A stretch of 64,000 bases of DNA from an uncultured Cyclobacteriaceae bacterium. Its GTDB lineage: Bacteria; Bacteroidota; Bacteroidia; Cytophagales; Cyclobacteriaceae. The DNA lies in NCBI GenBank assembly GCA_937958005.1, contig CALGOB010000159.1:13488-77487 (forward strand), given 5' to 3'. The notes under the pieces are model-generated. The model was not told where the DNA came from, did no database searches, and was given only the letters and a program-made list of their open reading frames with translations. The translations under genes and the position numbers were made by a program. Of the stretch, positions 1,377 to 31,976 are shown one piece after another (the stretch's first letter is position 1; every line of letters starts with the position of its first letter).

Positions 1377-3704
1377 TTAATTATCATCTTGAGAATCTCC
1401 AGAGGAGTTATCTGTGAACGTTAAGTTGGAAGAAACAAGTGTTCCATCTCTTTGAACCCTGATGCCAAACCCCCCACTTAAATTGATAGTGATATTGTCT
1501 AGATTAAGGAGGCCATTACGCCCTACTTCTATATTGGCACGCCTATTCGCTCCGTCAAAACCTCTACTTCCACCATTGGAAACAGTGGTGAAAGTAACTA
1601 TGTTGTTTGCATTTCTGGAATCGAAGCGAAGACCCCTCCAGAACCCGCTTACATTTTGTTCACCTGCAAAAGTTACAGGGTTACTGGCAGTTCCATTTAC
1701 TTGTAAAAAGCCATCTTGTGAAGATTGAAGACCTCCATCTGTGCTCGAAATAAAATTAGTACCTGCAGCTACAGTGACTCCGCCTCCAATAATGGTTTCT
1801 ACATTATTAGGGATTCTATAAGGAACATTTAGCGAATTCCAGGTTACCATTTGATTAATAGATGAACGAGACCTAAACCCATCTATGTAGTCATTTGTAT
1901 TCCCGGAATAGTCAGATTCACTGTCCATGTAATGCCAATTTATAGGACTTATCCTTACAGGAACATTATTGTTACTGATTGTATTGTTAGTGAAATCGGG
2001 CAATTTGGAATCATCATTTCTTAAATAAACGCCTACGTCATCACTTTTAGTGATAGTAGAAGATTGAATGACTAAACGGCCATTTCCTTCTACCATAACA
2101 TTGGCTTTTAAATTGGCGCCATCAAACCCTCTTTGTCCACCATTTGAGACTTGTGTGTGAATCAATTGATTAGAAGCATTGTTAGATTCAAATGATAACC
2201 CTCTCCAAGATCCTTCGGTATCATTTTCGCCTCGGAATATAATAGGGGCATCCATGGTGCCAGTGGCATTCAATGATCCGTTTTCAGTAATGAAAATTCC
2301 AGCCTCTGAAATACCTAAAAACTCTGCCCCTGGTTCTATGATTATGTTACTGCTAATACTAGTAACCCCTGTGGCTAATCTATAGGGCACGTTTAGCTTG
2401 TTCCAAGTAACATCTTGATCTGTAGTGGTTCTAGAACTAGTATTGATATAATCATTAGTATTTCCTGTATAATCAGACCCACTATCAAAAAAATGATAAT
2501 GATTAACTAATGAGCTTATAGGTATTGTATTCTCTTTAATTATATTGTTTGTAAAATTTACTAATTCAGATTCCGCACTTCTAATCAGTAAACCATTTCC
2601 ATCGGCATTACTGATGGTACTGTTTGTTAAAGTAAGTTTACCATCATTTTGAAGGGTTATATTTGCTTTTAAACCAGCTCCATCAAATCCATTGCTTCCA
2701 CCTCCGGAAATTTCTATAAAAGATAAAACATTAGAAGTATTATTAGAGGTGATTAATAACCCTCTCCAAAAACCTTTGGTAGATTCTTCTCCTTTAAAAA
2801 CAATACTATCAGTACTTGTTCCTATGGCATTGATACTTCCACCACTAGTAACAATCATGCCAGTGTTCTCTTGAAAACCAATAGATACGCCCTCATTTAT
2901 AGTTAAATCAGCAGTTATGCTAATAATAGATTGACTAGTTGGAACTAAATAATCTAAATATTTAGAGTCTTCGTAAACATTGGCAAGAGTTTCATTAGCA
3001 GAAATATCTTGGGTGAGTAGAATTGGTATTCTTTTTACTTCTAGGTTAGCTTCTGCTATTCCTGCATTTCCATCACTGTCAGTGACTGTTAATTGGATCG
3101 TGTAGATTCCTACTGTTTCCGAAGAAAAGGTAGCTTCATTAGTCGCTGCATTAACTAACATAGGGACGCTACCATCTGGTTGTTGTGTGATTTCCCACTG
3201 ATAGGTAGCCAAAGTGAGCCCATCCTCTAAATCAAAAGATGTTTGACCTGATAAAATGAACTCTTCATTTGGTCTGAAAACATTGTTGTCTTCAGTGATT
3301 TCCCTAGAATCTGCATTGGTAATCATAGCAGTTGGATTTGCCCCAGAAGAAGCTATTATAGTGATTGACTCTTCCCCTGATTGATTCCCATCAGATACTG
3401 AAAGATTTACTGTGTAATTCCCTTCCACATCTGTTGTGAAAGAAGCAATTGCCGTATTTGCATCAGTTAAGGTTGCATTACTGCCAGTAGGTTGATCTGC
3501 CAATATCCAACTATAAGTTAATGTTTCTCCTTCAGGGTCAAGAGATCCTTGTCCATTTAATGTGACCTCTTGGTTTATCCCTACTAATTCAGGAGCAATT
3601 ATAAGTGCACTTGGAGGTAAGTTTAATACATCATCAACTTCACCTCCACAAGCAACTATCATGACTAATGCGATGGAACATAAAATTAAATATACTTTTT
3701 TCAT
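1377..3704 (-). CDS. Surface lipoprotein with two PKD-like domains and three beta-helix-like repeats
   Basis: Lipobox (ALVMIVAC). PKD-like modules LNGQGSLDPEGETLTYSW and LSGQTSFDLEDG..TYQWE. Three ~150-aa internal repeats each carry G.WRGL.F.S.N and GG..GFDGA.LKANI. Confidence 0.85.
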   Translation of the reverse strand: MKKVYLILCSIALVMIVACGGEVDDVLNLPPSALIIAPELVGINQEVTLNGQGSLDPEGETLTYSWILADQPTGSNATLTDANTAIASFTTDVEGNYTVNLSVSDGNQSGEESITIIASSGANPTAMITNADSREITEDNNVFRPNEEFILSGQTSFDLEDGLTLATYQWEITQQPDGSVPMLVNAATNEATFSSETVGIYTIQLTVTDSDGNAGIAEANLEVKRIPILLTQDISANETLANVYEDSKYLDYLVPTSQSIISITADLTINEGVSIGFQENTGMIVTSGGSINAIGTSTDSIVFKGEESTKGFWRGLLITSNNTSNVLSFIEISGGGSNGFDGAGLKANITLQNDGKLTLTNSTISNADGNGLLIRSAESELVNFTNNIIKENTIPISSLVNHYHFFDSGSDYTGNTNDYINTSSRTTTDQDVTWNKLNVPYRLATGVTSISSNIIIEPGAEFLGISEAGIFITENGSLNATGTMDAPIIFRGENDTEGSWRGLSFESNNASNQLIHTQVSNGGQRGFDGANLKANVMVEGNGRLVIQSSTITKSDDVGVYLRNDDSKLPDFTNNTISNNNVPVRISPINWHYMDSESDYSGNTNDYIDGFRSRSSINQMVTWNSLNVPYRIPNNVETIIGGGVTVAAGTNFISSTDGGLQSSQDGFLQVNGTASNPVTFAGEQNVSGFWRGLRFDSRNANNIVTFTTVSNGGSRGFDGANRRANIEVGRNGLLNLDNITINLSGGFGIRVQRDGTLVSSNLTFTDNSSGDSQDDN

Positions 3705-3986
3705 ACAATCTTTATTATTTAAGTTTTGTCAAGACTTAGTGGGATGCAGAAATGGATAGGTTACCAGAAAAATGATTTTTTTTATAAAAAATGTTATTAA
3801 ACCTATTATTTTGCATTTACTGACTATTAATTAAATGATAAGACTATGCGAATAAGTTGATCAAATAAGTAATTCGCTTTCATTTTTAATAGTTGATAGA
3901 TTATATGGATTAGCTCACCATGAAAATAAATATTGGTATTACGGTAACCTATTCGGAAATAGTTTCACTAATTAACGAATGATCAT

Positions 3987-18572: not shown

Positions 18573-18626
18573 ATGAATTCAAGAATGACAAACAAAGCGT
18601 GGTGGTGGAACGATTATAGCATATAG
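18573..18626 (+). CDS. trpL: trp operon leader peptide MNSRMTNKAWWWNDYSI (three consecutive Trp codons)
   Basis: ATG 18573, TGG TGG TGG at 18600-18608, TAG at 18624-18626. A terminator follows directly, then trpE. Confidence 0.85.
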   Translation: MNSRMTNKAWWWNDYSI

Positions 18627-18660
18627 TCGCGAACAGCTACGTTATATATAAATATTATAA

Positions 18661-18687
18661 ACCCGCTCTTCGCAGCGGGTTTTTTTG
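18661..18687 (+). terminator. trp attenuator terminator
   Basis: ACCCGCT-cttcgc-AGCGGGT + TTTTTT, 21 nt before trpE. GCGAACAGC (18629-18637, just after the leader stop) can pair with GCTCTTCGC (18665-18673) as an antiterminator. Confidence 0.85.
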
Positions 18688-18707
18688 TTTCTAACATTTT
18701 AGAGAAA

Positions 18708-25184: not shown

Positions 25185-26195
25185 ATGATTATACAATTAG
25201 AGCAAAATATTACAGATTCAGTAAAAGAATCTATCATAGAGCAAGTTAAATCTTTGAATTACAAGCCTACAGAGGTAGTGACTCAAATTGGGAAATATAT
25301 TATTGGGATAGGAAAAGATGAGTTTGATATCAGACAAATTGGATCCTTGGAAGGAATTAATGACATCCACATTGTTTCTGATAGTTATCAGTTAGTTTCA
25401 AAGAAATGGAAAGTAAGTGATACACAAATAGATTTGGGAGATGGTGTAACTATAGGAGCCGACAGCTTTGCCATGATGGCTGGCCCATGCTCAATAGAAG
25501 GGGAGGAAAATATCTACAAAACCATTGCTCACCTCAAAGAAAATGGAATCAATATCATGAGGGGTGGAGTTTATAAACCAAGAAGTTCACCCTATTCATT
25601 TAGAGGAATGGGCATAGAAGGGTTGAAGATTTGGTATAAAGCTGCAAGAGAGAATGGAATCAAAATAGTGACTGAAGTTATGCAGGTTTCTCAAATAGAA
25701 GAAATGTATGACTATGTAGATATTTTTCAAGTAGGAGCAAGGAATACACAGAATTTTAACCTCCTGGATGAATTAGGGAAAGTAGATAAAGCTGTAATGA
25801 TCAAGAGAGGAATCTCTGGCACCATAGACGAGCTTTTACACAGTGCCGAATATGTATTTTCTGGAGGGAATGAAAGATTACTCTTGTGTGAAAGAGGCAT
25901 TAGAACCTATGAGAAAGCAAGTAGAAATACCTTTGATATCAATGCAATTCCAATTTTAAAAGATAAGACCCATTTACCAGTGATCTCAGATCCTTCACAT
26001 GGAATAGGAATTAGAGATCATGTAGATCCTGTTGCTTTAGCTTCCATCATTGCTGGAGCAGATGGTGTGATTTTTGAAATTCATGATAAACCAGAGGAAG
26101 CTTATTCTGATGGTCAACAAACTTTAGATTTTGATGAATCAGCTAAGTTGGTTAAAAAGATAAGAAGTGTTTTACAACTAAGAGAATCATTTTGA
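25185..26195 (+). CDS. aroF: 3-deoxy-7-phosphoheptulonate (DAHP) synthase, class I-beta with N-terminal regulatory domain
   Basis: KPRSSPYSFRGMG and DPSHG motifs, plus a ~70-aa ferredoxin-like N-extension. Starts 3 nt after trpA. Confidence 0.9.
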   Translation: MIIQLEQNITDSVKESIIEQVKSLNYKPTEVVTQIGKYIIGIGKDEFDIRQIGSLEGINDIHIVSDSYQLVSKKWKVSDTQIDLGDGVTIGADSFAMMAGPCSIEGEENIYKTIAHLKENGINIMRGGVYKPRSSPYSFRGMGIEGLKIWYKAARENGIKIVTEVMQVSQIEEMYDYVDIFQVGARNTQNFNLLDELGKVDKAVMIKRGISGTIDELLHSAEYVFSGGNERLLLCERGIRTYEKASRNTFDINAIPILKDKTHLPVISDPSHGIGIRDHVDPVALASIIAGADGVIFEIHDKPEEAYSDGQQTLDFDESAKLVKKIRSVLQLRESF

Positions 26196-26210
26196 TTCTC
26201 TTAGTTTTTG
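26178..26210 (+). terminator. Terminator of the trp-aroF operon
   Basis: CTAAGAGAATC-atttt-GATTCTCTTAG + TTTTT. The stop codon lies inside the stem. Confidence 0.75.
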
Positions 26211-26643
26211 CTAAAACCTTTAAATTATTTTAAAGATAATTTAACCTTATATTTCTGTTGCAATAAGTTCTTCTCAAAGTGATCTTGTTACAGTATATTA
26301 TAATGCCTCATTTTGCCTTATTATATCAGCTTTACCTATCCTTTTGAAACATTGAAATGATTTACCTGTTATAGACTGAGTGTAGTAATTGAATCGAGGG
26401 TCTCATTCTGTAGGTCTCAGGTTAATTTATCTTAATAGATAAGATCTTGTTTGAACGGTGGATGACATTTAGAAATAAATGTTCTTAAGAATGATTGAGA
26501 TTATTCTTTTTTGATTTAGAATTTTATATTATTTTAATTGAGTAATTTATTGGTTTTGCCAAACTAAGTATTGAATTTGACGTGAATTCGAAATATAAAT
26601 TCCGTGTGTGCTGTATTTTAGATTTTGATATTCGCAAAAGCAT

Positions 26644-26706
26644 ATGTATTTTTACTACATGAATACAAGACAACACCATAAAGGATATTATTATTACCCT
26701 CTATAA
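26644..26706 (+). CDS. Candidate Tyr-rich leader peptide MYFYYMNTRQHHKGYYYYPL upstream of phhA
   Basis: ATG 26644 (in-frame ATG also at 26659). TAT TAT TAT TAC at 26686-26697, with 7 Tyr + 1 Phe in 20 codons. TAA at 26704-26706. A terminator lies 43 nt downstream. Confidence 0.6.
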   Translation: MYFYYMNTRQHHKGYYYYPL

Positions 26707-26748
26707 CAGGGCCTGATATTCCTTTTGTTGTTTTAGAAAGAAATTGAT

Positions 26749-26776
26749 AAGCCTGAATATTTTCAGGCTTTTTTTG
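26749..26776 (+). terminator. Intrinsic terminator between the Tyr-rich leader ORF and phhA (candidate attenuator)
   Basis: AAGCCTGAA-tatt-TTCAGGCTT + TTTTTGTTTT, ending 28 nt before the phhA ATG. Confidence 0.75.
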
Positions 26777-26803
26777 TTTTAAGGCTAAGTAGTCATTTGA
26801 ATT

Positions 26804-27550
26804 ATGGATCAAGTATACGAAAATTACACTGAAGAGGACTTTGAAGTTTGGAAAGTCTTATTTGAAAGACAGATTAAAATATTACCTACTGCTGCTACAC
26901 AATCCTATTTAGATGGCTTAGTGGATATAAAATTCCATGCAGACAAAATTCCTGCTTTTGAAGAGACTAATAAGATCTTAAGTAGTCTTACGGGTTGGGA
27001 ATTAGCGGTAGTGCCAGGAATAGTTCCCGATTATACATTCTTTGAATTAATGTCCAATAAACGTTTTCCTGCTACCACTTGGTTAAGGAAAATGAAAGAA
27101 CTTGATTACCTAGAAGAGCCCGATATGTTTCATGATGTGTTTGCTCATGTACCACTTTTGACCAACGAGTCTTTTGTTAGTTTTTTACAGGCTCTCAGTG
27201 AAATTGGCCTAGACTATTGTGGTGATGATTATGCAATTGATATTTTATCAAGAGTGTATTGGTTTACTGTTGAATTTGGTTTGATTAGGGAAAACGATAA
27301 CCTTAGAATTTATGGGGCAGGAATTCTTTCATCAGCAGGGGAAACGGTTTATAGTCTAAGTGATGAGCCCACTCACCATGAGTTTGATGTAAAAAAGATC
27401 GCTAATACTGGGTATAGAAAAGATAAATTCCAAACTGAATATTTCATCATAGATTCATATGAGCAATTGTATCAATCTATTCCAGAGATTAAAGAAGTAT
27501 TAGCCGATATGGTAGCTAAACATCATCAGTCAAAAGAAACAGCTGTTTAG
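26804..27550 (+). CDS. phhA: Phenylalanine 4-monooxygenase
   Basis: PDMFHDVFAHVPLL (iron His pair), YGAGILSS and EFGL motifs, 248 aa. Confidence 0.9.
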   Translation: MDQVYENYTEEDFEVWKVLFERQIKILPTAATQSYLDGLVDIKFHADKIPAFEETNKILSSLTGWELAVVPGIVPDYTFFELMSNKRFPATTWLRKMKELDYLEEPDMFHDVFAHVPLLTNESFVSFLQALSEIGLDYCGDDYAIDILSRVYWFTVEFGLIRENDNLRIYGAGILSSAGETVYSLSDEPTHHEFDVKKIANTGYRKDKFQTEYFIIDSYEQLYQSIPEIKEVLADMVAKHHQSKETAV

Positions 27551-27668
27551 AAAAAGGGTCATCAGTCAGGTTATTTAATTGATTATTTCACTGATGAGGG
27601 ACTTGACTACTTCAAAAATAAGTGACAAACTTGACCTAAATTTACAAACCAATTACTTTTACTGAATC

Positions 27669-28253
27669 TTGGAATTAGCAATAATTAAATACAACGCTGG
27701 CAATGTTCAAAGCTTAACATTTGCCTTGAATAGGTTGGGGATAGAGCCAATTTTAACGGATGACCCAGCTATACTGACCAAAGTGGACAAAGTGATTTTC
27801 CCGGGAGTAGGGGAAGCAAGTACTGCGATGAATTACCTAAAGGAGAAAAAGCTTGACAAAGTAATCACTGGAATCAAGCAACCTTTTTTAGGAGTTTGTC
27901 TGGGATTACAACTCATGTGTAAACATTCTGAAGAAAACAATACGGATTGCCTTGGGATTTTTGACTTAGCCGTAAAAAGATTTGTAGCAACTGAGAAAGT
28001 ACCACATATGGGGTGGAATACTATTCAAAACCTGAAAAGTCAATTGTTTGATCAAGTCGTGGAGAATGCATACTTGTATTTTGTTCATAGTTTTTACGCG
28101 GAAAAAAGTGAGCAGACCATAGCTACTTGTGGATATGCTAATGATTTTAGTGCTGCGTTACAAAAGGATAACTTTTATGCCATTCAAGCACATCCAGAAA
28201 AGAGTAGTAAAACAGGACAACAGATTTTAGAAAATTTCCTATCAATCAAATAA
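27669..28253 (+). CDS. hisH: Imidazole glycerol phosphate synthase, glutaminase subunit
   Basis: GVCLGLQLM and a C-terminal HPEKS motif. TTG start. Confidence 0.9.
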   Translation: MELAIIKYNAGNVQSLTFALNRLGIEPILTDDPAILTKVDKVIFPGVGEASTAMNYLKEKKLDKVITGIKQPFLGVCLGLQLMCKHSEENNTDCLGIFDLAVKRFVATEKVPHMGWNTIQNLKSQLFDQVVENAYLYFVHSFYAEKSEQTIATCGYANDFSAALQKDNFYAIQAHPEKSSKTGQQILENFLSIK

Positions 28254-28970
28254 ATGGAAATAATACCAGCAATAGACCTCATAGACGGAAAGTGTGTCAG
28301 GTTGACCAAAGGGGATTATGATCAAAAAAAGATTTATAATGAAGACCCTCTTGAAGTAGCGAAATCATTTGAAGACGCAGGAATTACAAAACTTCATTTA
28401 GTAGATTTAGATGGTGCTAAAGCCAGGAAAATTATTAATGCTTCTGTATTACATAGAATAGCATCTCATACTTCATTGTCAATAGATTTTGGAGGAGGGG
28501 TACAATCTGATGAAGATATAAAAATTGCCTTTGATCATGGGGCTCAGCAAATAACTGGAGGAAGTATAGCCGTTAAAAATCCCGATTTATTTAAACAATG
28601 GATTAAGGCTTATGGTACTGAAAAGATCATATTAGGAGCTGATGTACTAGAGGAAAAAATAGCTACAGCTGGGTGGCAAGAGATTAATGAGTTGGAAGTG
28701 GTTCCTTTCATAAATTCATACAAGAGAGAAGGGATTCAATACGTTATTTGTACGGATATTTCTAAAGATGGCGTTTTAATGGGACCTTCGTTAGATTTAT
28801 ATCAAAAAATACTATTGGAGATACCTGATATTAAATTAATCGCTAGTGGGGGAGTAACTAGTGAAGATGATTTAGTAAAATTGAAAGAAGCTGGAGTTTA
28901 TGGGGCCATCATTGGCAAAGCAATCTATGAAAATAGGATATCTTTGGACGCATTGAAAAAATTCTTGTAA
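28254..28970 (+). CDS. hisA: ProFAR isomerase
   Basis: IIPAIDL..G..VRL start, LHLVDLDGA and GGG motifs. Confidence 0.9.
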
Positions 28971-28971
28971 T

Positions 28972-29730
28972 ATGCTCACTAAAAGAATTATTCCATGTTT
29001 AGACATCAAGGATGGAAGAACAGTGAAAGGGGTAAATTTTGTAGATTTGAAAGATGCAGGAGATCCCGTAGAACTTGCAGCACTTTATGCTGACCAATAT
29101 GCAGATGAATTGGTTTTTTTAGATATAACTGCTACAGTTGAAAAGCGAAAAACACTTGTTGACCTAGTGAAGAGGGTGGCAGCTGCCATCAATATACCTT
29201 TTACAGTAGGAGGGGGAATAAGCTCTGTTGAAGATGTTTCTGCTTTGCTAAATGCAGGTGCCGATAAGATTTCCATTAATTCTTCAGCGGTTAAAAAACC
29301 AGAATTAGTAAATGAATTAGCATTGGAGTTCGGTAGTCAATGCGTTGTAGTGGCCATTGATACTCGTTTTGTGGAGAATAATCACTACGTACATACCAGG
29401 GGAGGCCGTACCAAGACAGAATTGAAAACCTTAGAATGGGTTAAAGAAGTTGCAGAAAGAGGAGCGGGAGAAATTTTGCTGACTTCCATGGATCATGATG
29501 GGACTAAAGCAGGCTTTGCGGATAAGTTAACCAGTCAAGTGAGTGAGTTAGTTAATATCCCCGTGATTGCTTCGGGAGGAGGTGGCAATACGCAACACTT
29601 TATTGATGTATTTGGTAAAGGAAAAGCAGATGCGGCATTAGCAGCCAGTATTTTTCATTACAAGGAAGTGGATATTAGAGAATTAAAAAAGTCATTGGCA
29701 GAAACGGGTATTCCTATCAGGGAACATTAA
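28972..29730 (+). CDS. hisF: Imidazole glycerol phosphate synthase, cyclase subunit
   Basis: [19 protein letters not shown] and ASGGGG motifs. Confidence 0.95.
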
Positions 29731-29745
29731 AAGAATAGAATCTAT

Positions 29746-30348
29746 ATGAAAATTGATTTCGAAAAAGGAGATGGGTTAGTCCCTGTAATTGTTCAAGATA
29801 TAGCAAGTAAAACTGTTTTAATGTTGGGTTACATGAATCAAGAGGCGATTGATAAGACAGTTTCATCTGGTAAAGTAACGTTCTTCAGTAGAAGTAAAAA
29901 TAGACTGTGGACAAAGGGAGAAACCTCAGGCAATTTTCTTGAGTATATCAGCATGGAGGAGGATTGTGATCATGATACAATTTTGGTGAAAGTAAACCCA
30001 ATTGGCCCTGTATGCCATACAGGTTCTACAACTTGTTTTAATGATGACCAATTAGCCAACAACAAGCTTGGTTTTATTGCGACTTTGGAAGGAATAATCA
30101 AGAATAGGAGAGAAAACCAGACTGATCAATCATATACATCATCGCTATTTAAGAAAGGAATTAACAAAATAGCCCAAAAAGTGGGAGAAGAGGCGGTAGA
30201 GGTAGTGATAGAAGCCAAAGATGACAATGAAGAATTGTTTTTAAATGAGTCAGCGGACCTGTTATTTCATTATTTAATCTTACTTCAAGCTAAAGGATTT
30301 ACAATTGATGATGTATTAGGTGTTTTAGAAGAAAGGCACAAAAAGTAA
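29746..30348 (+). CDS. hisI: Bifunctional phosphoribosyl-AMP cyclohydrolase / phosphoribosyl-ATP pyrophosphatase
   Basis: The N-half has the CDHDT..CHTG Zn motif (HisI). The C-half has AQKVGEEA.E..IEA..D (HisE). Confidence 0.9.
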   Translation: MKIDFEKGDGLVPVIVQDIASKTVLMLGYMNQEAIDKTVSSGKVTFFSRSKNRLWTKGETSGNFLEYISMEEDCDHDTILVKVNPIGPVCHTGSTTCFNDDQLANNKLGFIATLEGIIKNRRENQTDQSYTSSLFKKGINKIAQKVGEEAVEVVIEAKDDNEELFLNESADLLFHYLILLQAKGFTIDDVLGVLEERHKK

Positions 30349-30432: not shown

Positions 30433-31920
30433 ATGGAAAAATACGATATTTGTGTGATAGGGGCTGGCCCTTCTGGATATGCTGCAGCTATGAGAGCAGT
30501 TGATTTTAAGAAGAAGGTGCTTCTTATAGAAAAGAAACAATTAGGAGGTGCGGGTATTCATCATGGAGCATTATCTAGTAAAACATGGTGGGAGATATCC
30601 CGCGAAGCATGGTTGATGAGAAAAAATGGTAGAGCATTTAATACATCGATTAATTTAAATTTTAATTTTCAAGAGATTAAATCTGAAGTTAGAAAGGCAG
30701 TAAATGAACGTATGGGGCTGTTAGAGCATCATTTGCATAACATTAACCTGAGTAAAAACGAAGAATTACTTTTTTATAAGCAAGGAAGTGCTCGCGTAGT
30801 TGGTAAAAATGAAGTTGAAGTAAATACCTTAGAAGGAACAGAGACTGTTAATGCTGACTTTATCATCCTTGCAACAGGTAGTAGACCTAGGATACTCCCC
30901 AATATACCAGTAGATGAGAAGATCATCTTAACAAGTGATGGAATAGATAAATTAGAAGAGTTTCCTAATAGTATGGTGATTTTAGGAGCTGGTGTGATTG
31001 GTTGCGAATTTGCTACTATCTTTTCAAATTTTGGTCAAACTAAAGTACATTTAATTGATAAAGGCGATCGTATTTTACCGTTTGAAGATGAAGATGTAGT
31101 AAATGAAGTTGAAAAGAATTTAGAAGAAAAAAATGTCCTGATTCATCGAAATTCCAAACTCATCAACATGCGCATTGAAAACGGTTTGGTAGCCTATACC
31201 TTAGAATACACGGATGGATATCAAGAGGTTTTCAGAGTCGAAAAGGCATTGGTCTCTGTTGGGAGAATTCCTAACTATGAAAACTTGTTTGATGAGAATG
31301 TTGGAATTGATATTAATAATAGAGGGATCAAAGATAATCTGACACAAACAAGTGTGCCTAATATTTATGCTGTCGGTGATATTACAGCCGATATTTCTTT
31401 GGTCAATGTTGGAGAATTGGAAGGTCGCTATGCGGTAGAGCGAATGTTTGGTATGCCTCCTACTAGGCCATTAGTATATGAAAATATCTCAACTATTATG
31501 TTTTTAACTCCGGAAGTTGCTGGAGTAGGGCTTAATGAAATAGCTGCTCAGAATAAAGGGATGAATTACAAGATAGCTAGTTTGGACTATGCTTGCATTT
31601 CTAGGGCGACTGCCATGAGAAATTCCGAAGGATTTATAAAAATCCTAGTAACTGATGACGATGAAATGAAAATTCTAGGCATGCGCGTAATTGGTGAACA
31701 TGCTTCTAGTGCTATAGAGGCAGTTGCCTTATTGATCTCAATGGATAAAGGAATTAGAGAAATATCAGAATTAATACACCCTCATCCTTCTATTACAGAA
31801 GGCATTCAAGAATGTGTAAGAATGTTATTGAATAATTCCGTTTTAAAGCCAGCTGTTTTAAGGGATAAAATGCAATGCAAAGCTTATAGGAACGGCAAAT
31901 ACAGTGAAGTAGATTTTTAG
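30433..31920 (+). CDS. FAD/NAD(P)-dependent pyridine-nucleotide-disulfide-oxidoreductase-family protein lacking the redox-active Cys pair
   Basis: GAGPSGY FAD fold, second Rossmann GAGVIGCEF and C-terminal HPHPSITE. The usual GG.C....C.PSK site reads GGAGIHHGALSSK. Confidence 0.85.
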   Translation: MEKYDICVIGAGPSGYAAAMRAVDFKKKVLLIEKKQLGGAGIHHGALSSKTWWEISREAWLMRKNGRAFNTSINLNFNFQEIKSEVRKAVNERMGLLEHHLHNINLSKNEELLFYKQGSARVVGKNEVEVNTLEGTETVNADFIILATGSRPRILPNIPVDEKIILTSDGIDKLEEFPNSMVILGAGVIGCEFATIFSNFGQTKVHLIDKGDRILPFEDEDVVNEVEKNLEEKNVLIHRNSKLINMRIENGLVAYTLEYTDGYQEVFRVEKALVSVGRIPNYENLFDENVGIDINNRGIKDNLTQTSVPNIYAVGDITADISLVNVGELEGRYAVERMFGMPPTRPLVYENISTIMFLTPEVAGVGLNEIAAQNKGMNYKIASLDYACISRATAMRNSEGFIKILVTDDDEMKILGMRVIGEHASSAIEAVALLISMDKGIREISELIHPHPSITEGIQECVRMLLNNSVLKPAVLRDKMQCKAYRNGKYSEVDF

Positions 31921-31944
31921 AATAAATTAACCTTGAGAATATTT

Positions 31945-31976
31945 AACAGCTAACATTTATTTTAGCTGTTTTTTTG
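31945..31976 (+). terminator. Rho-independent terminator
   Basis: AACAGCTAA-catttatt-TTAGCTGTT + TTTTTT, 25 nt after the stop at 31920. Confidence 0.75.

Follow-up and report, generated by a model that had tools for sequence, protein, structure and literature searches.

Textbook examples of leader-peptide attenuators exist for Trp, His, Phe, Thr, Leu and Ile/Val, and sensing of more than one amino acid by a single leader has precedents in thr (Thr and Ile) and ilv (Leu, Val and Ile). Tyrosine supply and uncharged tRNA-Tyr are also read by quite different systems that control Tyr-related genes. The T-box, as found before tyrS, binds tRNA directly and without translation, while the DNA-binding proteins PhhR and TyrR treat phhA as a catabolic gene and induce it in response to plentiful Phe or Tyr. 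PhhA, phenylalanine 4-hydroxylase, converts Phe to Tyr; in Pseudomonas, where PhhR activates phhA, the enzyme is taken to be catabolic. Within the Bacteroidota, leader peptides have been predicted for the pheA, hisG, trpE and ilvE operons of Flavobacterium psychrophilum (PMC9723704, supplementary appendix D9). The pheA leader of that organism, MNTNNTFYSNNSFYFYWNIGRDCYMVI, mixes Phe and Tyr codons, its hisG leader is His-rich (HHHHFH) and read-through of the leaders has transcriptome support; its phhA gene is preceded by an ordinary 20-nt 5′ UTR that lacks a leader (PMC9723704). The Bacteroid-trp leader (Rfam RF01692) is a further element of the leader-peptide type in this phylum (PMC2864571). 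In Corynebacterium glutamicum, aroF is preceded by the aroR leader (Phe-Tyr-Phe), which reacts to a shortage of Phe and is insensitive to Tyr supply (PMC11802643). We found no experimentally established Tyr leader-peptide attenuator in the literature searched, and neither a Tyr-sensing leader nor a leader before phhA is described in that literature or in Rfam 15.

We analyzed a 64,000-nt stretch of DNA from an uncultured Cyclobacteriaceae bacterium (hereafter the window, whose positions are used throughout), in which a short Tyr-rich open reading frame (ORF) and an intrinsic terminator lie upstream of phhA. The original prediction, that this region is a Tyr-codon leader-peptide attenuator acting on phhA, is supported by conservation in related genomes and by a match to a covariance model built from other lineages (R1, described below). 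We consider it likely that the region is a ribosome-mediated leader-peptide attenuator that responds to the charging of tRNA-Tyr and tRNA-His and governs transcription of a phhA-hisH-hisA-hisF-hisIE unit, and it is most likely a previously undescribed member of this class. Like trpL, hisL, pheL, thrL and ilvL, it has a short ORF with clustered end-product codons. As in those enterobacterial leaders, the alternative hairpins 1:2, 3:4 and, as a weak candidate in the window, 2:3 can be drawn, the terminator sits just before the first structural gene, and the stop codon is placed so that a terminating ribosome would mask region 2. However, it shows no sequence homology to the enterobacterial leaders and, unlike them, it would sense Tyr combined with His, its target is the phhA hydroxylase joined to half a his operon, and it has a Bacteroidota −33/−7 promoter, no Shine-Dalgarno sequence and an apparently leaderless mRNA. 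The F. psychrophilum leaders come from the same phylum and are the same kind of element, but they precede other target genes, none joins Tyr and His, and none has been described before phhA. The aroR leader shares with the phhA leader a Tyr-codon leader peptide, an aromatic pathway gene and the use of ribosome stalling; it differs in having one Tyr codon, in belonging to the Actinobacteria and in preceding a DAHP synthase gene. Bacteroid-trp differs in its Trp codons and its target, the trp operon. For PhhR and TyrR the regulatory logic is the opposite of the induction on Tyr shortage that we propose. Neither the window nor any of 10 homologous loci contained a match at gathering score to the Rfam families His_leader, Phe_leader, Thr_leader, Trp_leader, Bacteroid-trp or T-box; the best sub-threshold matches, Phe_leader (28 versus 55 bits) and Thr_leader (18.6 versus 55), were driven by the terminator.

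The predicted components (the ORF, the Tyr run, the stop codon, the sequence directly after it, CAGGGCCTGATATT at 26707-26720, and the terminator hairpin) were all found at the positions given for them. On the + strand, an in-frame ORF extends from a first ATG at 26644 to 26706, ending in a TAA at 26704-26706, with the product MYFYYMNTRQHHKGYYYYPL. This ORF had been described as a leader of 20 codons with 7 Tyr and 1 Phe. It is present, but the true start is most likely the second ATG, at 26659, which gives a 15-codon leader, MNTRQHHKGYYYYPL* (26659-26706, +), and agrees with both the layout in relatives and the start of the R1 match. The alternative in-frame start at 26644 (+) was rejected because relatives lack an in-frame ATG there and the sequence is that of a conserved −7 box. 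This −7 promoter element, TATTTTTA (26647-26654, +), overlaps codons 2-4 of the longer ORF (TAT, TTT and the TA of TAC), and the "MYFYY" or "YFYY" codons that had been counted as part of the leader thus coincide with a conserved Bacteroidota promoter box. With the start at 26659, the regulatory codons would therefore be four Tyr and two His. The two His codons, CAC CAT (26674-26679, +), are proposed to act for the his genes, and the four Tyr codons, TAT TAT TAT TAC (26686-26697, +), for phhA; Tyr runs are kept in phhA leaders. We also surveyed all short ORFs in the 64-kb window (ATG start, 10-40 codons, both strands; n = 857). YYYY occurs only in the nested pair starting at 26644 and 26659, and only four sites combine a three-residue run in a short ORF with a terminator no more than 90 nt away, namely the YYYY leader ORF, a trp leader (WWW) and two SSS cases.

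The promoter assignment rests on comparison with relatives. A −33 element, TTTG (26624-26627, +), lies 19 nt 5′ of the −7 box and is invariant in nine of nine window-type sequences (alignment A2), throughout which the motif TAyTTTTAC is also kept. The eight close relatives, whose PhhA is 75-84% identical and which share the architecture of the window, have an invariant TTTG-N19-TAyTTTTAC-N3/4-ATG arrangement and no upstream in-frame ATG. In the wider family the layout is TTG-N19/18-TAnnTTTG, with the canonical TAnnTTTG located 4-9 nt (mostly 5) 5′ of the leader ATG. The Bacteroidota −7 box has been mapped to −12 to −5 (PMC6847099, PMC9723704), which would put +1 near 26659, on the A of the downstream ATG. 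Based on this spacing we infer that the leader mRNA is leaderless. The spacer of about 430 nt further upstream (26211-26620), searched for a conserved element, showed no significant similarity to relatives.

Conservation of the Tyr codons and terminator in orthologous leaders had been proposed as a check, and Tyr-rich ORFs with terminators do recur before phhA across the Cytophagales, in most cases with covariation in the terminator and with an antiterminator. Cultured relatives carrying the element include Roseivirga, Imperialibacter, Algoriphagus and Shiella. A Tyr/His-rich short ORF was detected 5′ of phhA in 65 of 148 related Cytophagales loci (about 44%), compared to 5 of 148 reverse complements and 3 of 148 regions further upstream (2-3%) under the same rule. 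Distinct leader-plus-terminator sequences numbered 45. Although the sequences have diverged, about 65 loci preserve the reading frame with its start and stop, and His and Tyr codons vary synonymously among relatives (CAT/CAC and TAT/TAC). Translation of the leader ORF is suggested by these two features. Among the eight close relatives, which were obtained only through protein search and contig look-ups (genome and metagenome scans returned no relative above 74% PhhA identity), the leader is exactly 15 codons in seven and 16 in the other (L172); MTFNTYHKGYHYYPL and MTLYTYHKGYHYYPG are examples. Asn and Asp codons are also frequent in the leaders. Loci in which phhA lies 0-30 nt behind aroF carry no leader, and many phhA-his loci are likewise without one, including relatives at 68-74% PhhA identity. 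Covariance model R1, built from 27 leaders of other lineages with the window lineage excluded, matches 26659-26777 (+) over model positions 1-133 with 30.1 bits and E = 0.003, a rough value given the short calibration. No other match of R1 in the window falls below this E-value mark of 0.5.

The first regulated gene would be phhA (26804-27550, +; Pfam Biopterin_H, E = 1.6e-49). Pfam further identifies hisH (27669-28253), hisA (28254-28970), hisF (28972-29730) and hisIE (29746-30348) on the same strand, a his block spanning 27669-30348, and confirms a DAHP synthase gene upstream of the leader. The order phhA-hisH-hisA-hisF-hisIE recurs in the close relatives, and no terminator-like site was found on the + strand from phhA to 31945. 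The four his genes are probably co-transcribed with phhA, as judged from this arrangement. The original prediction of a sensor for Tyr alone had overlooked these genes along with the two His codons. At least two His codons occur in 48 of 49 distinct leaders with hisH downstream and in 2 of 15 without it (Fisher p = 1e-10 for the 64 distinct leaders, with phylogeny ignored). Leaders before phhA-hisH have one to four His codons, mostly interleaved with Tyr, and those without hisH downstream have pure Tyr runs. At least five within-clade contrasts agree with this link, and in sister lineages CAY/UAY switches match the presence of hisH (L146 versus L126/127; Roseivirga-type versus L109/L118). Because the His-codon content tracks downstream hisH, the sensor appears to be one for Tyr and His, not for Tyr alone. 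Two other explanations of the codon pattern were considered. GC drift behind the choice of His or Tyr codons was rejected, with rho = −0.14 between GC content and the number of His codons within the hisH leaders and overlapping GC ranges of the groups, and queuosine-dependent sensing of NAY codons (Tyr, His, Asn and Asp) leaves the hisH link unexplained.

These observations also bear on the rival that survives best, namely that the attenuator senses only Tyr, that its His codons are incidental and that the his genes are controlled separately. The Tyr run is indeed the most striking feature of the leader, and phhA leaders without his genes operate on Tyr codons alone; furthermore, the phhA-hisH gap in the window is 118 nt long and could hold a separate promoter. 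However, His codons are nearly universal in hisH leaders and nearly absent from the runs of the others, and the codon switches between sister lineages follow hisH. The corresponding gap is just 25-35 nt or so in close relatives, and the window has no terminator between phhA and hisIE. We therefore regard sensing of Tyr alone as unlikely.

The terminator expected shortly before phhA is confirmed. The hairpin AAGCCUGAA-UAUU-UUCAGGCUU (regions 3:4; 26749-26770, +; −12.3 kcal/mol), in DNA form AAGCCTGAA-TATT-TTCAGGCTT, is followed by the U-tract TTTTTGTTTT (T5-G-T4; 26771-26780, +). It begins 42 nt past the leader stop, and about 27 nt separate the end of the T-run from the phhA ATG at 26804. Within the window such a terminator alone is not significant (1 found versus 0.6 expected), and its support comes from conservation and covariation, not from single-window statistics. 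In the family alignment the hairpin is 96% paired with compensatory, both-sided changes at six pairs, a level of covariation reached by none of 500 shuffles.

Upstream of the terminator, a hairpin that we term H1 (1:2, the putative anti-antiterminator; 26667-26734, +; MFE −17.3 kcal/mol) holds the His and Tyr codons in its 5′ arm, the leader stop in its apical loop and region 2 in its 3′ arm. Folding of the whole region gave z = −3.1 relative to shuffled sequences. Each of the eight close relatives folds an equivalent of H1 (−14.9 to −18.6 kcal/mol), and in every one the leader stop lies at or beside the apical loop. In A2 the core helix AAAGGA:UCCUUU reaches 91% pairing, whereas the outer helix is not column-aligned, and covariation of H1 column by column was not significant. 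Region 2 (26707-26722, +), the candidate 5′ strand of an antiterminator, lies directly 3′ of the leader stop, where it would be masked by a terminating ribosome. In the close relatives, AGGUCAAU pairs with AUUGGCCU in the terminator 5′ flank and arm, forming 7-8 bp at −8.7 to −12.6 kcal/mol; this helix is 90% paired in A2 and shows one double compensatory change. In L161, the closest relative in architecture, a compensatory change preserves the pairing. Duplexes of region 2 with the terminator 5′ arm range from −9.5 to −20.9 kcal/mol in the wider family, where the position of region 2 relative to the leader stop never falls outside −34 to +13 nt. Antiterminator covariation in automatic alignments was modest and, column-wise across subfamilies, weak. 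Since MAFFT misaligns the subfamilies and the helices shift register, a difficulty that applies to H1 as well, the antiterminator was assessed instead by alignment-free duplex energies against shuffles. By this measure the duplex beats dinucleotide shuffles at p ≤ 0.05 in 32 of 44 sequences of the wider family (median z −2.2).

Among the antiterminators compared, that of the window itself is the weakest. Its energy of −5.9 kcal/mol falls among the values of shuffled sequences (z = −0.1 and +0.5; p = 0.45 and 0.67), and it has two mismatches in the eight positions of the family register. Two pairings of the sequence after the stop had been proposed. For the first (CAGG-g-C with GCCUG), the register proved to be conserved in relatives, but its strength in the window is at shuffle level. 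The second (GCCUGA..UAUU with the loop and 3′ arm) was rejected as an antiterminator. In this fold, the terminator 3′ arm is taken up by a duplicated 5′ arm, GGCCUGAUAUUCC (26709-26721), in a long hairpin (−14.5 kcal/mol) before the U-tract. Because it uses the same 3′ arm directly 5′ of the U-tract, it would be an alternative terminator, and it could blunt read-through.

Equilibrium folding with a masked ribosome gave the terminator at about 100% in the window, and the terminator also won in most homologues; regulation would thus rest on an assumed kinetic order of folding. As the equilibrium mask is uninformative for a kinetic switch, it was replaced by folding of the nascent RNA before the terminator 3′ arm is made. 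Co-transcriptional folding with a ribosome mask predicts three states that follow the same logic for the window and for every relative, at lower amplitude in the window. Pairing of the terminator 5′ arm amounts to about 50-100% while the ribosome sits on codons up to the last Tyr. Once the ribosome is on the last codons or the stop, pairing of this arm drops to about 0-10% in most sequences (at most 40%, in L169), and without a ribosome the arm is largely unpaired in the majority of sequences.

These results fit the following model of the dual sensor. The Bacteroidota-type promoter would fire at or beside the ATG at 26659, yielding a leaderless mRNA from which the 15-codon leader would be translated. 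When Tyr and His are ample, the ribosome would reach the UAA at 26704-26706 in the apical loop of H1 and cover region 2 (26707 to about 26719), so that the terminator forms and transcription stops before phhA. If the leader is not translated, H1 would sequester region 2 and the terminator would form as well. When charged tRNA-Tyr or tRNA-His is scarce, the ribosome is predicted to stall on CAC CAU (26674-26679) or on UAU UAU UAU UAC (26686-26697). There it would occupy the 5′ arm of H1 and release region 2, which could pair with the terminator 5′ flank and arm before the 3′ arm is made. RNA polymerase would then read through into phhA, for synthesis of Tyr from Phe, and into the his genes. For this the weak antiterminator of the window presumably suffices. 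If the attenuator reading is correct, strengthening region 2 to CAGGCUUAUC is expected to give higher induction.

That weakness is also the basis for a different view of the window copy, in which the family is a true attenuator and the local element is a decayed or leaky relic that damps expression without sensing. The shuffle-level antiterminator, the two mismatches in the family register and the terminator-like second fold allowed by the duplicated 5′ arm would all fit such a relic. On the other hand, the ORF, the His and Tyr codons, H1, the promoter boxes and the strong terminator are intact and match those of relatives position for position, the ribosome-mask model retains its three states at the lower amplitude, and the compensatory change in L161 maintains the pairing. 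Moreover, a constitutive terminator 27 nt 5′ of phhA would shut off an operon for which no other promoter is visible, and decay of the window copy seems to us quite improbable. A translation-independent RNA element (a riboswitch or a protein- or tRNA-binding leader, with the YAY repeats as an RNA motif and the ORF as a by-product) is very improbable: the codon region doubles as the 5′ arm of a conserved hairpin, which implies constraint at the RNA level, and leader translation is itself deduced, but the conserved frame, the near-constant 15-codon length among the close relatives and the synonymous codon variation all argue against it, the link between His codons and hisH is naturally explained only through decoding, and no Rfam riboswitch or T-box matched the window or the 10 homologous loci.

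Returning to the sensor for Tyr and His, we lean towards a more specific reading, in which one leaderless 15-codon ORF integrates the charging of tRNA-Tyr and tRNA-His for a chimeric phhA-hisHAFIE operon, and in which gains and losses of his genes by the operon were repeatedly accompanied by single CAY/UAY transitions that re-tuned the codon mix. If so, phenylalanine hydroxylase would be anabolic in these Cytophagales and possibly their main route to Tyr. Induction on Tyr shortage, if confirmed, would identify PhhA as an enzyme of tyrosine biosynthesis across a large marine and soil group of Bacteroidota. The family would also offer a natural experiment in which leader codons and the gene content of the controlled operon appear to evolve together, as well as a case of a leader ORF at the very start of its mRNA, in a phylum without Shine-Dalgarno initiation, of use in annotation, transcriptome and ribosome-profiling work. 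The mechanism itself is classical; a known principle is extended and none is added. The window contains a further candidate of the same kind, a trp leader at 18573-18689 (MNSRMTNKAWWWNDYSI followed by a terminator) that is the functional counterpart of Bacteroid-trp. It scores below the Rfam gathering score and is matched weakly by R1 (18.1 bits, E = 0.54). With this WWW leader and its terminator in the same window, the source genome appears to use leader-peptide attenuation.

The window carries a short ORF (26644-26706, product MYFYYMNTRQHHKGYYYYPL) containing the Tyr run TAT TAT TAT TAC (26686-26697), followed by a terminator hairpin, AAGCCTGAA-TATT-TTCAGGCTT (26749-26770, then TTTTTGTTTT), and the phhA start at 26804. 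On re-reading the sequence, all four lay where the original prediction had placed them. Pfam assigned the product of phhA to Biopterin_H (E=1.6e-49), the upstream gene (25185-26195) to DAHP synthase (aroF), the downstream genes (27669-30348) to hisH, hisA, hisF and hisIE, and the + strand gene after hisIE (30433-31970, 495 aa) to a pyridine-nucleotide disulphide oxidoreductase. No terminator-like sites were found on the + strand from phhA to 31945; the first + strand terminator past phhA (31945-31970) is at the end of the oxidoreductase gene. Of the 857 short ORFs (ATG start, 10-40 codons) counted over both strands of the window, YYYY is confined to the nested pair at the phhA leader. Just four window sites combine a short ORF bearing a three-residue run with a terminator no more than 90 nt away, namely the phhA leader, the trp leader (WWW) and two with SSS. 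The leader region also folds better than shuffled sequence (z=-3.1). The terminator-like hairpin of aroF (26178-26210) was not called a terminator by a simple scan, and the spacer of ~410 nt between it and the leader promoter (26211-26620) did not significantly resemble its counterparts in close relatives.

We gathered 160 phhA loci (one genome per species plus metagenomes; all Cytophagales-like Bacteroidota; PhhA identity 54-74%) and screened them with a uniform rule: a short ORF (10-50 codons) had to contain a 7-residue window in which four or more residues were Tyr or His, two or more of them Tyr. Of 148 loci, 65 had such a leader ahead of phhA, against 5/148 for reverse complements and 3/148 for a region further upstream; examples are MNFSAQNYYYYYYYREAS..., MKEQKAYYYYYYSVSTGLGQGS, MLHSNAYYYHYYHATQARNGSRMF, MNGNTYHIYYYHVAPERFRQ and, for the Algoriphagus type, MNPTPRTYIHHSHYPLQ. 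A strict terminator separates leader from phhA in most loci that have a leader, and almost none of the loci lacking one has such a terminator. The leader is absent where phhA follows aroF by 0-30 nt (L010, L017-L032, L036; Ekhidna and related), and there phhA probably closes the trp-aroF unit and comes under that operon's control. One locus (L008) has a tandem phhA pair (2219-2929 and 3001-3708) behind aroF, then hisH.

The family leaders have the potential for mutually exclusive hairpins. Region 1, the Tyr/His codons (e.g. ACUACC), pairs with GGUAGU near the ORF end; the latter belongs to region 2 (e.g. CGGAACGG), the antiterminator 5′ strand, which is complementary to the terminator 5′ arm (e.g. 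CCGGUUCCG). The family terminator is 96% paired; 6 of its 11 pairs show compensatory changes, and its covariation is reached by 0/500 shuffles. An automatic alignment in which some subfamilies are misaligned gives 81% pairing for the antiterminator; by eye, double changes were seen (GGAAUAGG:CCUAUUCC vs GGAUUAGG:CCUAAUCC, and GGAAC:GUUCC vs GGAGC:GCUCC). Scored alignment-free, the duplex of region 2 with the 5′ arm and loop has energies of -9.5 to -20.9 kcal/mol, lies always between -34 and +13 nt relative to the leader stop, and is better than dinucleotide shuffles at p<=0.05 in 32/44 sequences (median z -2.2). Because equilibrium folding was uninformative, the terminator always winning, we folded the nascent transcript, ending at the terminator loop, with the ribosome footprint masked. 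In this model the terminator 5′ arm stays sequestered as long as the ribosome has gone no further than the Tyr/His codons and is released once it is on the last codons or stop, and the same three states recur across the window and its close relatives.

Of 45 distinct leader-plus-terminator sequences, 29 have a perfect TAnnTTTG box ahead of the leader ATG, in 27 of the 29 at a distance of 4-11 nt, mostly 5 nt, with TTG usually 18-19 nt further upstream. In Flavobacterium, mapping places this box at -12 to -5 and the transcription start 4-5 nt beyond (PMC6847099, PMC9723704), so the family's leader mRNAs should be leaderless or nearly so. Close relatives were found by protein search (PhhA identity 75-84%) and their contigs fetched; eight (L161, L162, L164, L165, L167, L168, L169, L172) share the window's architecture and, where the contig suffices, its gene order of trpA-aroF, a gap of ~340-470 nt and phhA-hisH-hisA-hisF-hisIE. 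Their layout in alignment with the window is invariant (TTTG, 19 nt, TAyTTTTAC, 3-4 nt, ATG). Seven of the relatives have a leader of precisely 15 codons and L172 has one of 16 (for example MTMNTYHRGYHYYRR, MIFNTYHKGFHYYPH, MTLYTYHKGYHYYPG, MTFNTYHKGYHYYPL and MNNTKHHTGFYYHPH), and an in-frame ATG upstream of the leader start is absent in all eight. We therefore consider that the window leader most likely begins at 26659, with the predicted product MNTRQHHKGYYYYPL, rather than at 26644 as first read; the first five codons of that reading overlap the promoter spacer and the -7 box, TATTTTTA (26647-54). If this box occupies -12 to -5, +1 would fall on A26659. An in-frame ATG inside the promoter lengthens the apparent ORF, as in MYFYY... 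(26644-26658) and, in Roseivirga-type loci such as L042 and L055, MHITFDPM..., so that automatic ORF calling and reading by eye alike would put leader length and Tyr count too high. Among window-type sequences, synonymous variation is seen at the His and Tyr codons. In the L169 leader (1244-1291), MSMYTYHKGCHYCPL, two Tyr positions are Cys codons TGT, one base from TAT; the rest of that element is intact, its 8-bp antiterminator included.

Within the window's lineage, every sequence folds H1 (26667-26734 in the window), an anti-antiterminator hairpin of the codon region with region 2 (-14.9 to -18.6 kcal/mol), whose 5′ arm holds the His and Tyr codons and whose apical loop has the leader stop at or beside it. 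In six relatives the bases just past the stop (AGGUCAAU or a near variant) pair with the terminator 5′ flank and arm (AUUGGCCU), giving an antiterminator of 7-8 bp (-8.7 to -12.6 kcal/mol) equal in stability to the terminator. This register is 90% paired in the alignment of the window with its eight relatives, and in the window/L161 pair one C-G has become U-A, a double compensatory change. The CAGG pairing with CCUG originally proposed is in the register that relatives keep, but it is weak in the window copy: this best duplex reaches -5.9 kcal/mol and does not outscore shuffled sequence (z=-0.1, p=0.45; second test z=+0.5, p=0.67), and two positions of the family register (G26710-U26717 with A26747-U26754) are mismatched. 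The window still switches in the ribosome-mask model, with the lowest amplitude of the set (5′ arm ~0.5-0.6 paired, vs 0.05 without a ribosome and 0.0 with a ribosome on the last codon or stop). The stretch GGCCUGAUAUUCC (26709-21) resembles a second copy of the terminator 5′ arm, AGCCUGAAUAUU (26750-61), and a T-rich tail follows each copy (GGCCTGATATTCC, 26709-26721; AGCCTGAATATT, 26750-26761). A second proposed pairing, of this upstream copy with the terminator 3′ arm, was rejected as an antiterminator; it can form a long hairpin (-14.5 kcal/mol) that ends at the same U-tract and would terminate. Attenuator logic is well supported for the family and the window's lineage; in the window itself the final step is proposed from homology together with weak pairing.

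The genes hisH-hisA-hisF-hisIE lie behind phhA in the window and many loci and are missing from others. Leaders before phhA-his operons carry His codons, in most interleaved with Tyr (YYYHYYH, YHYHYYY, HHSHY; HHKGYYYY in the window), whereas where phhA has no his genes behind it the leader run is purely of Tyr (e.g. YYYYYYY, YYYYYY, YYSYYY). At least two His codons were found in 48 of 49 leaders with hisH downstream vs 2 of 15 without (64 distinct leader peptides; Fisher p=1e-10, Mann-Whitney p=1e-8; counts and tests ignore kinship), and both exceptions have their His residues outside the Tyr run. At least five separate contrasts, ordered by PhhA similarity, point in the same direction: L109, L114 and L118 vs Roseivirga-type leaders, L126 and L127 vs L146, L060 vs L045 and L050, L035 vs the Algoriphagus type, and L155 vs L147. 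Homologous leaders in these pairs are often single CAY/UAY transitions apart. GC content, checked across the leaders, fails to account for the codon pattern, and we know of no reason for that pattern besides decoding-based sensing of both amino acids. The original prediction of a Tyr sensor stands in part: the His-codon/hisH match suggests a dual sensor of Tyr plus His, and the controlled unit is probably phhA-hisHAFIE, of which phhA had been named and the his genes had gone unnoted. Near phhA in many his-less loci lies a homologue of the window's pyridine-nucleotide disulphide oxidoreductase.

A covariance model built from 27 phhA leaders of other lineages matched the window exactly at 26659-26777 (30.1 bits, E=0.003) and matched all window-type relatives. 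We consider the finding real, and the central idea of a leader-peptide attenuator before phhA holds once corrected in its start codon, the amino acids sensed, the unit controlled and the proposed pairings. We infer the element's function solely from comparative sequence analysis; so read, the phhA leader is a putative member of the leader-peptide attenuator class, whose mechanism is itself not new. Rfam 15 gave no family match for this element in the window at gathering level, sub-threshold Phe_leader and Thr_leader matches being owed to the terminator, and none in ten homologous loci. We found no Tyr-codon leader for phhA in the literature searched. The nearest precedents are the leader peptides predicted in Flavobacterium psychrophilum before pheA (mixed Phe and Tyr), hisG, trpE and ilvE (PMC9723704 supplement), the aroR leader of C. 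glutamicum (Phe-Tyr-Phe), whose response is to Phe and on which Tyr is without effect (PMC11802643), and the Bacteroid-trp motif (PMC2864571). Unlike in the window, F. psychrophilum phhA has a plain 20-nt 5′ UTR (PMC9723704 supplement). The window's Trp leader, MNSRMTNKAWWWNDYSI (18573-18626, + strand; element 18573-18689, terminator 18659-18682), before trpE (18708), scored below the Rfam Bacteroid-trp gathering score and matched the phhA-leader model weakly (18.1 bits, E=0.54). The only family matched in the window at gathering level was a small SRP RNA of the Bacteroidales type (RF04183; 10688-10786, - strand; 80.9 bits). The phhA-hisH gap is 118 nt in the window (27551-27668) vs about 25-35 nt in close relatives and may reflect a small insertion; it holds an 8-bp inverted repeat (27559-27566/27590-27597) with a 23-nt loop and without a U-tract.
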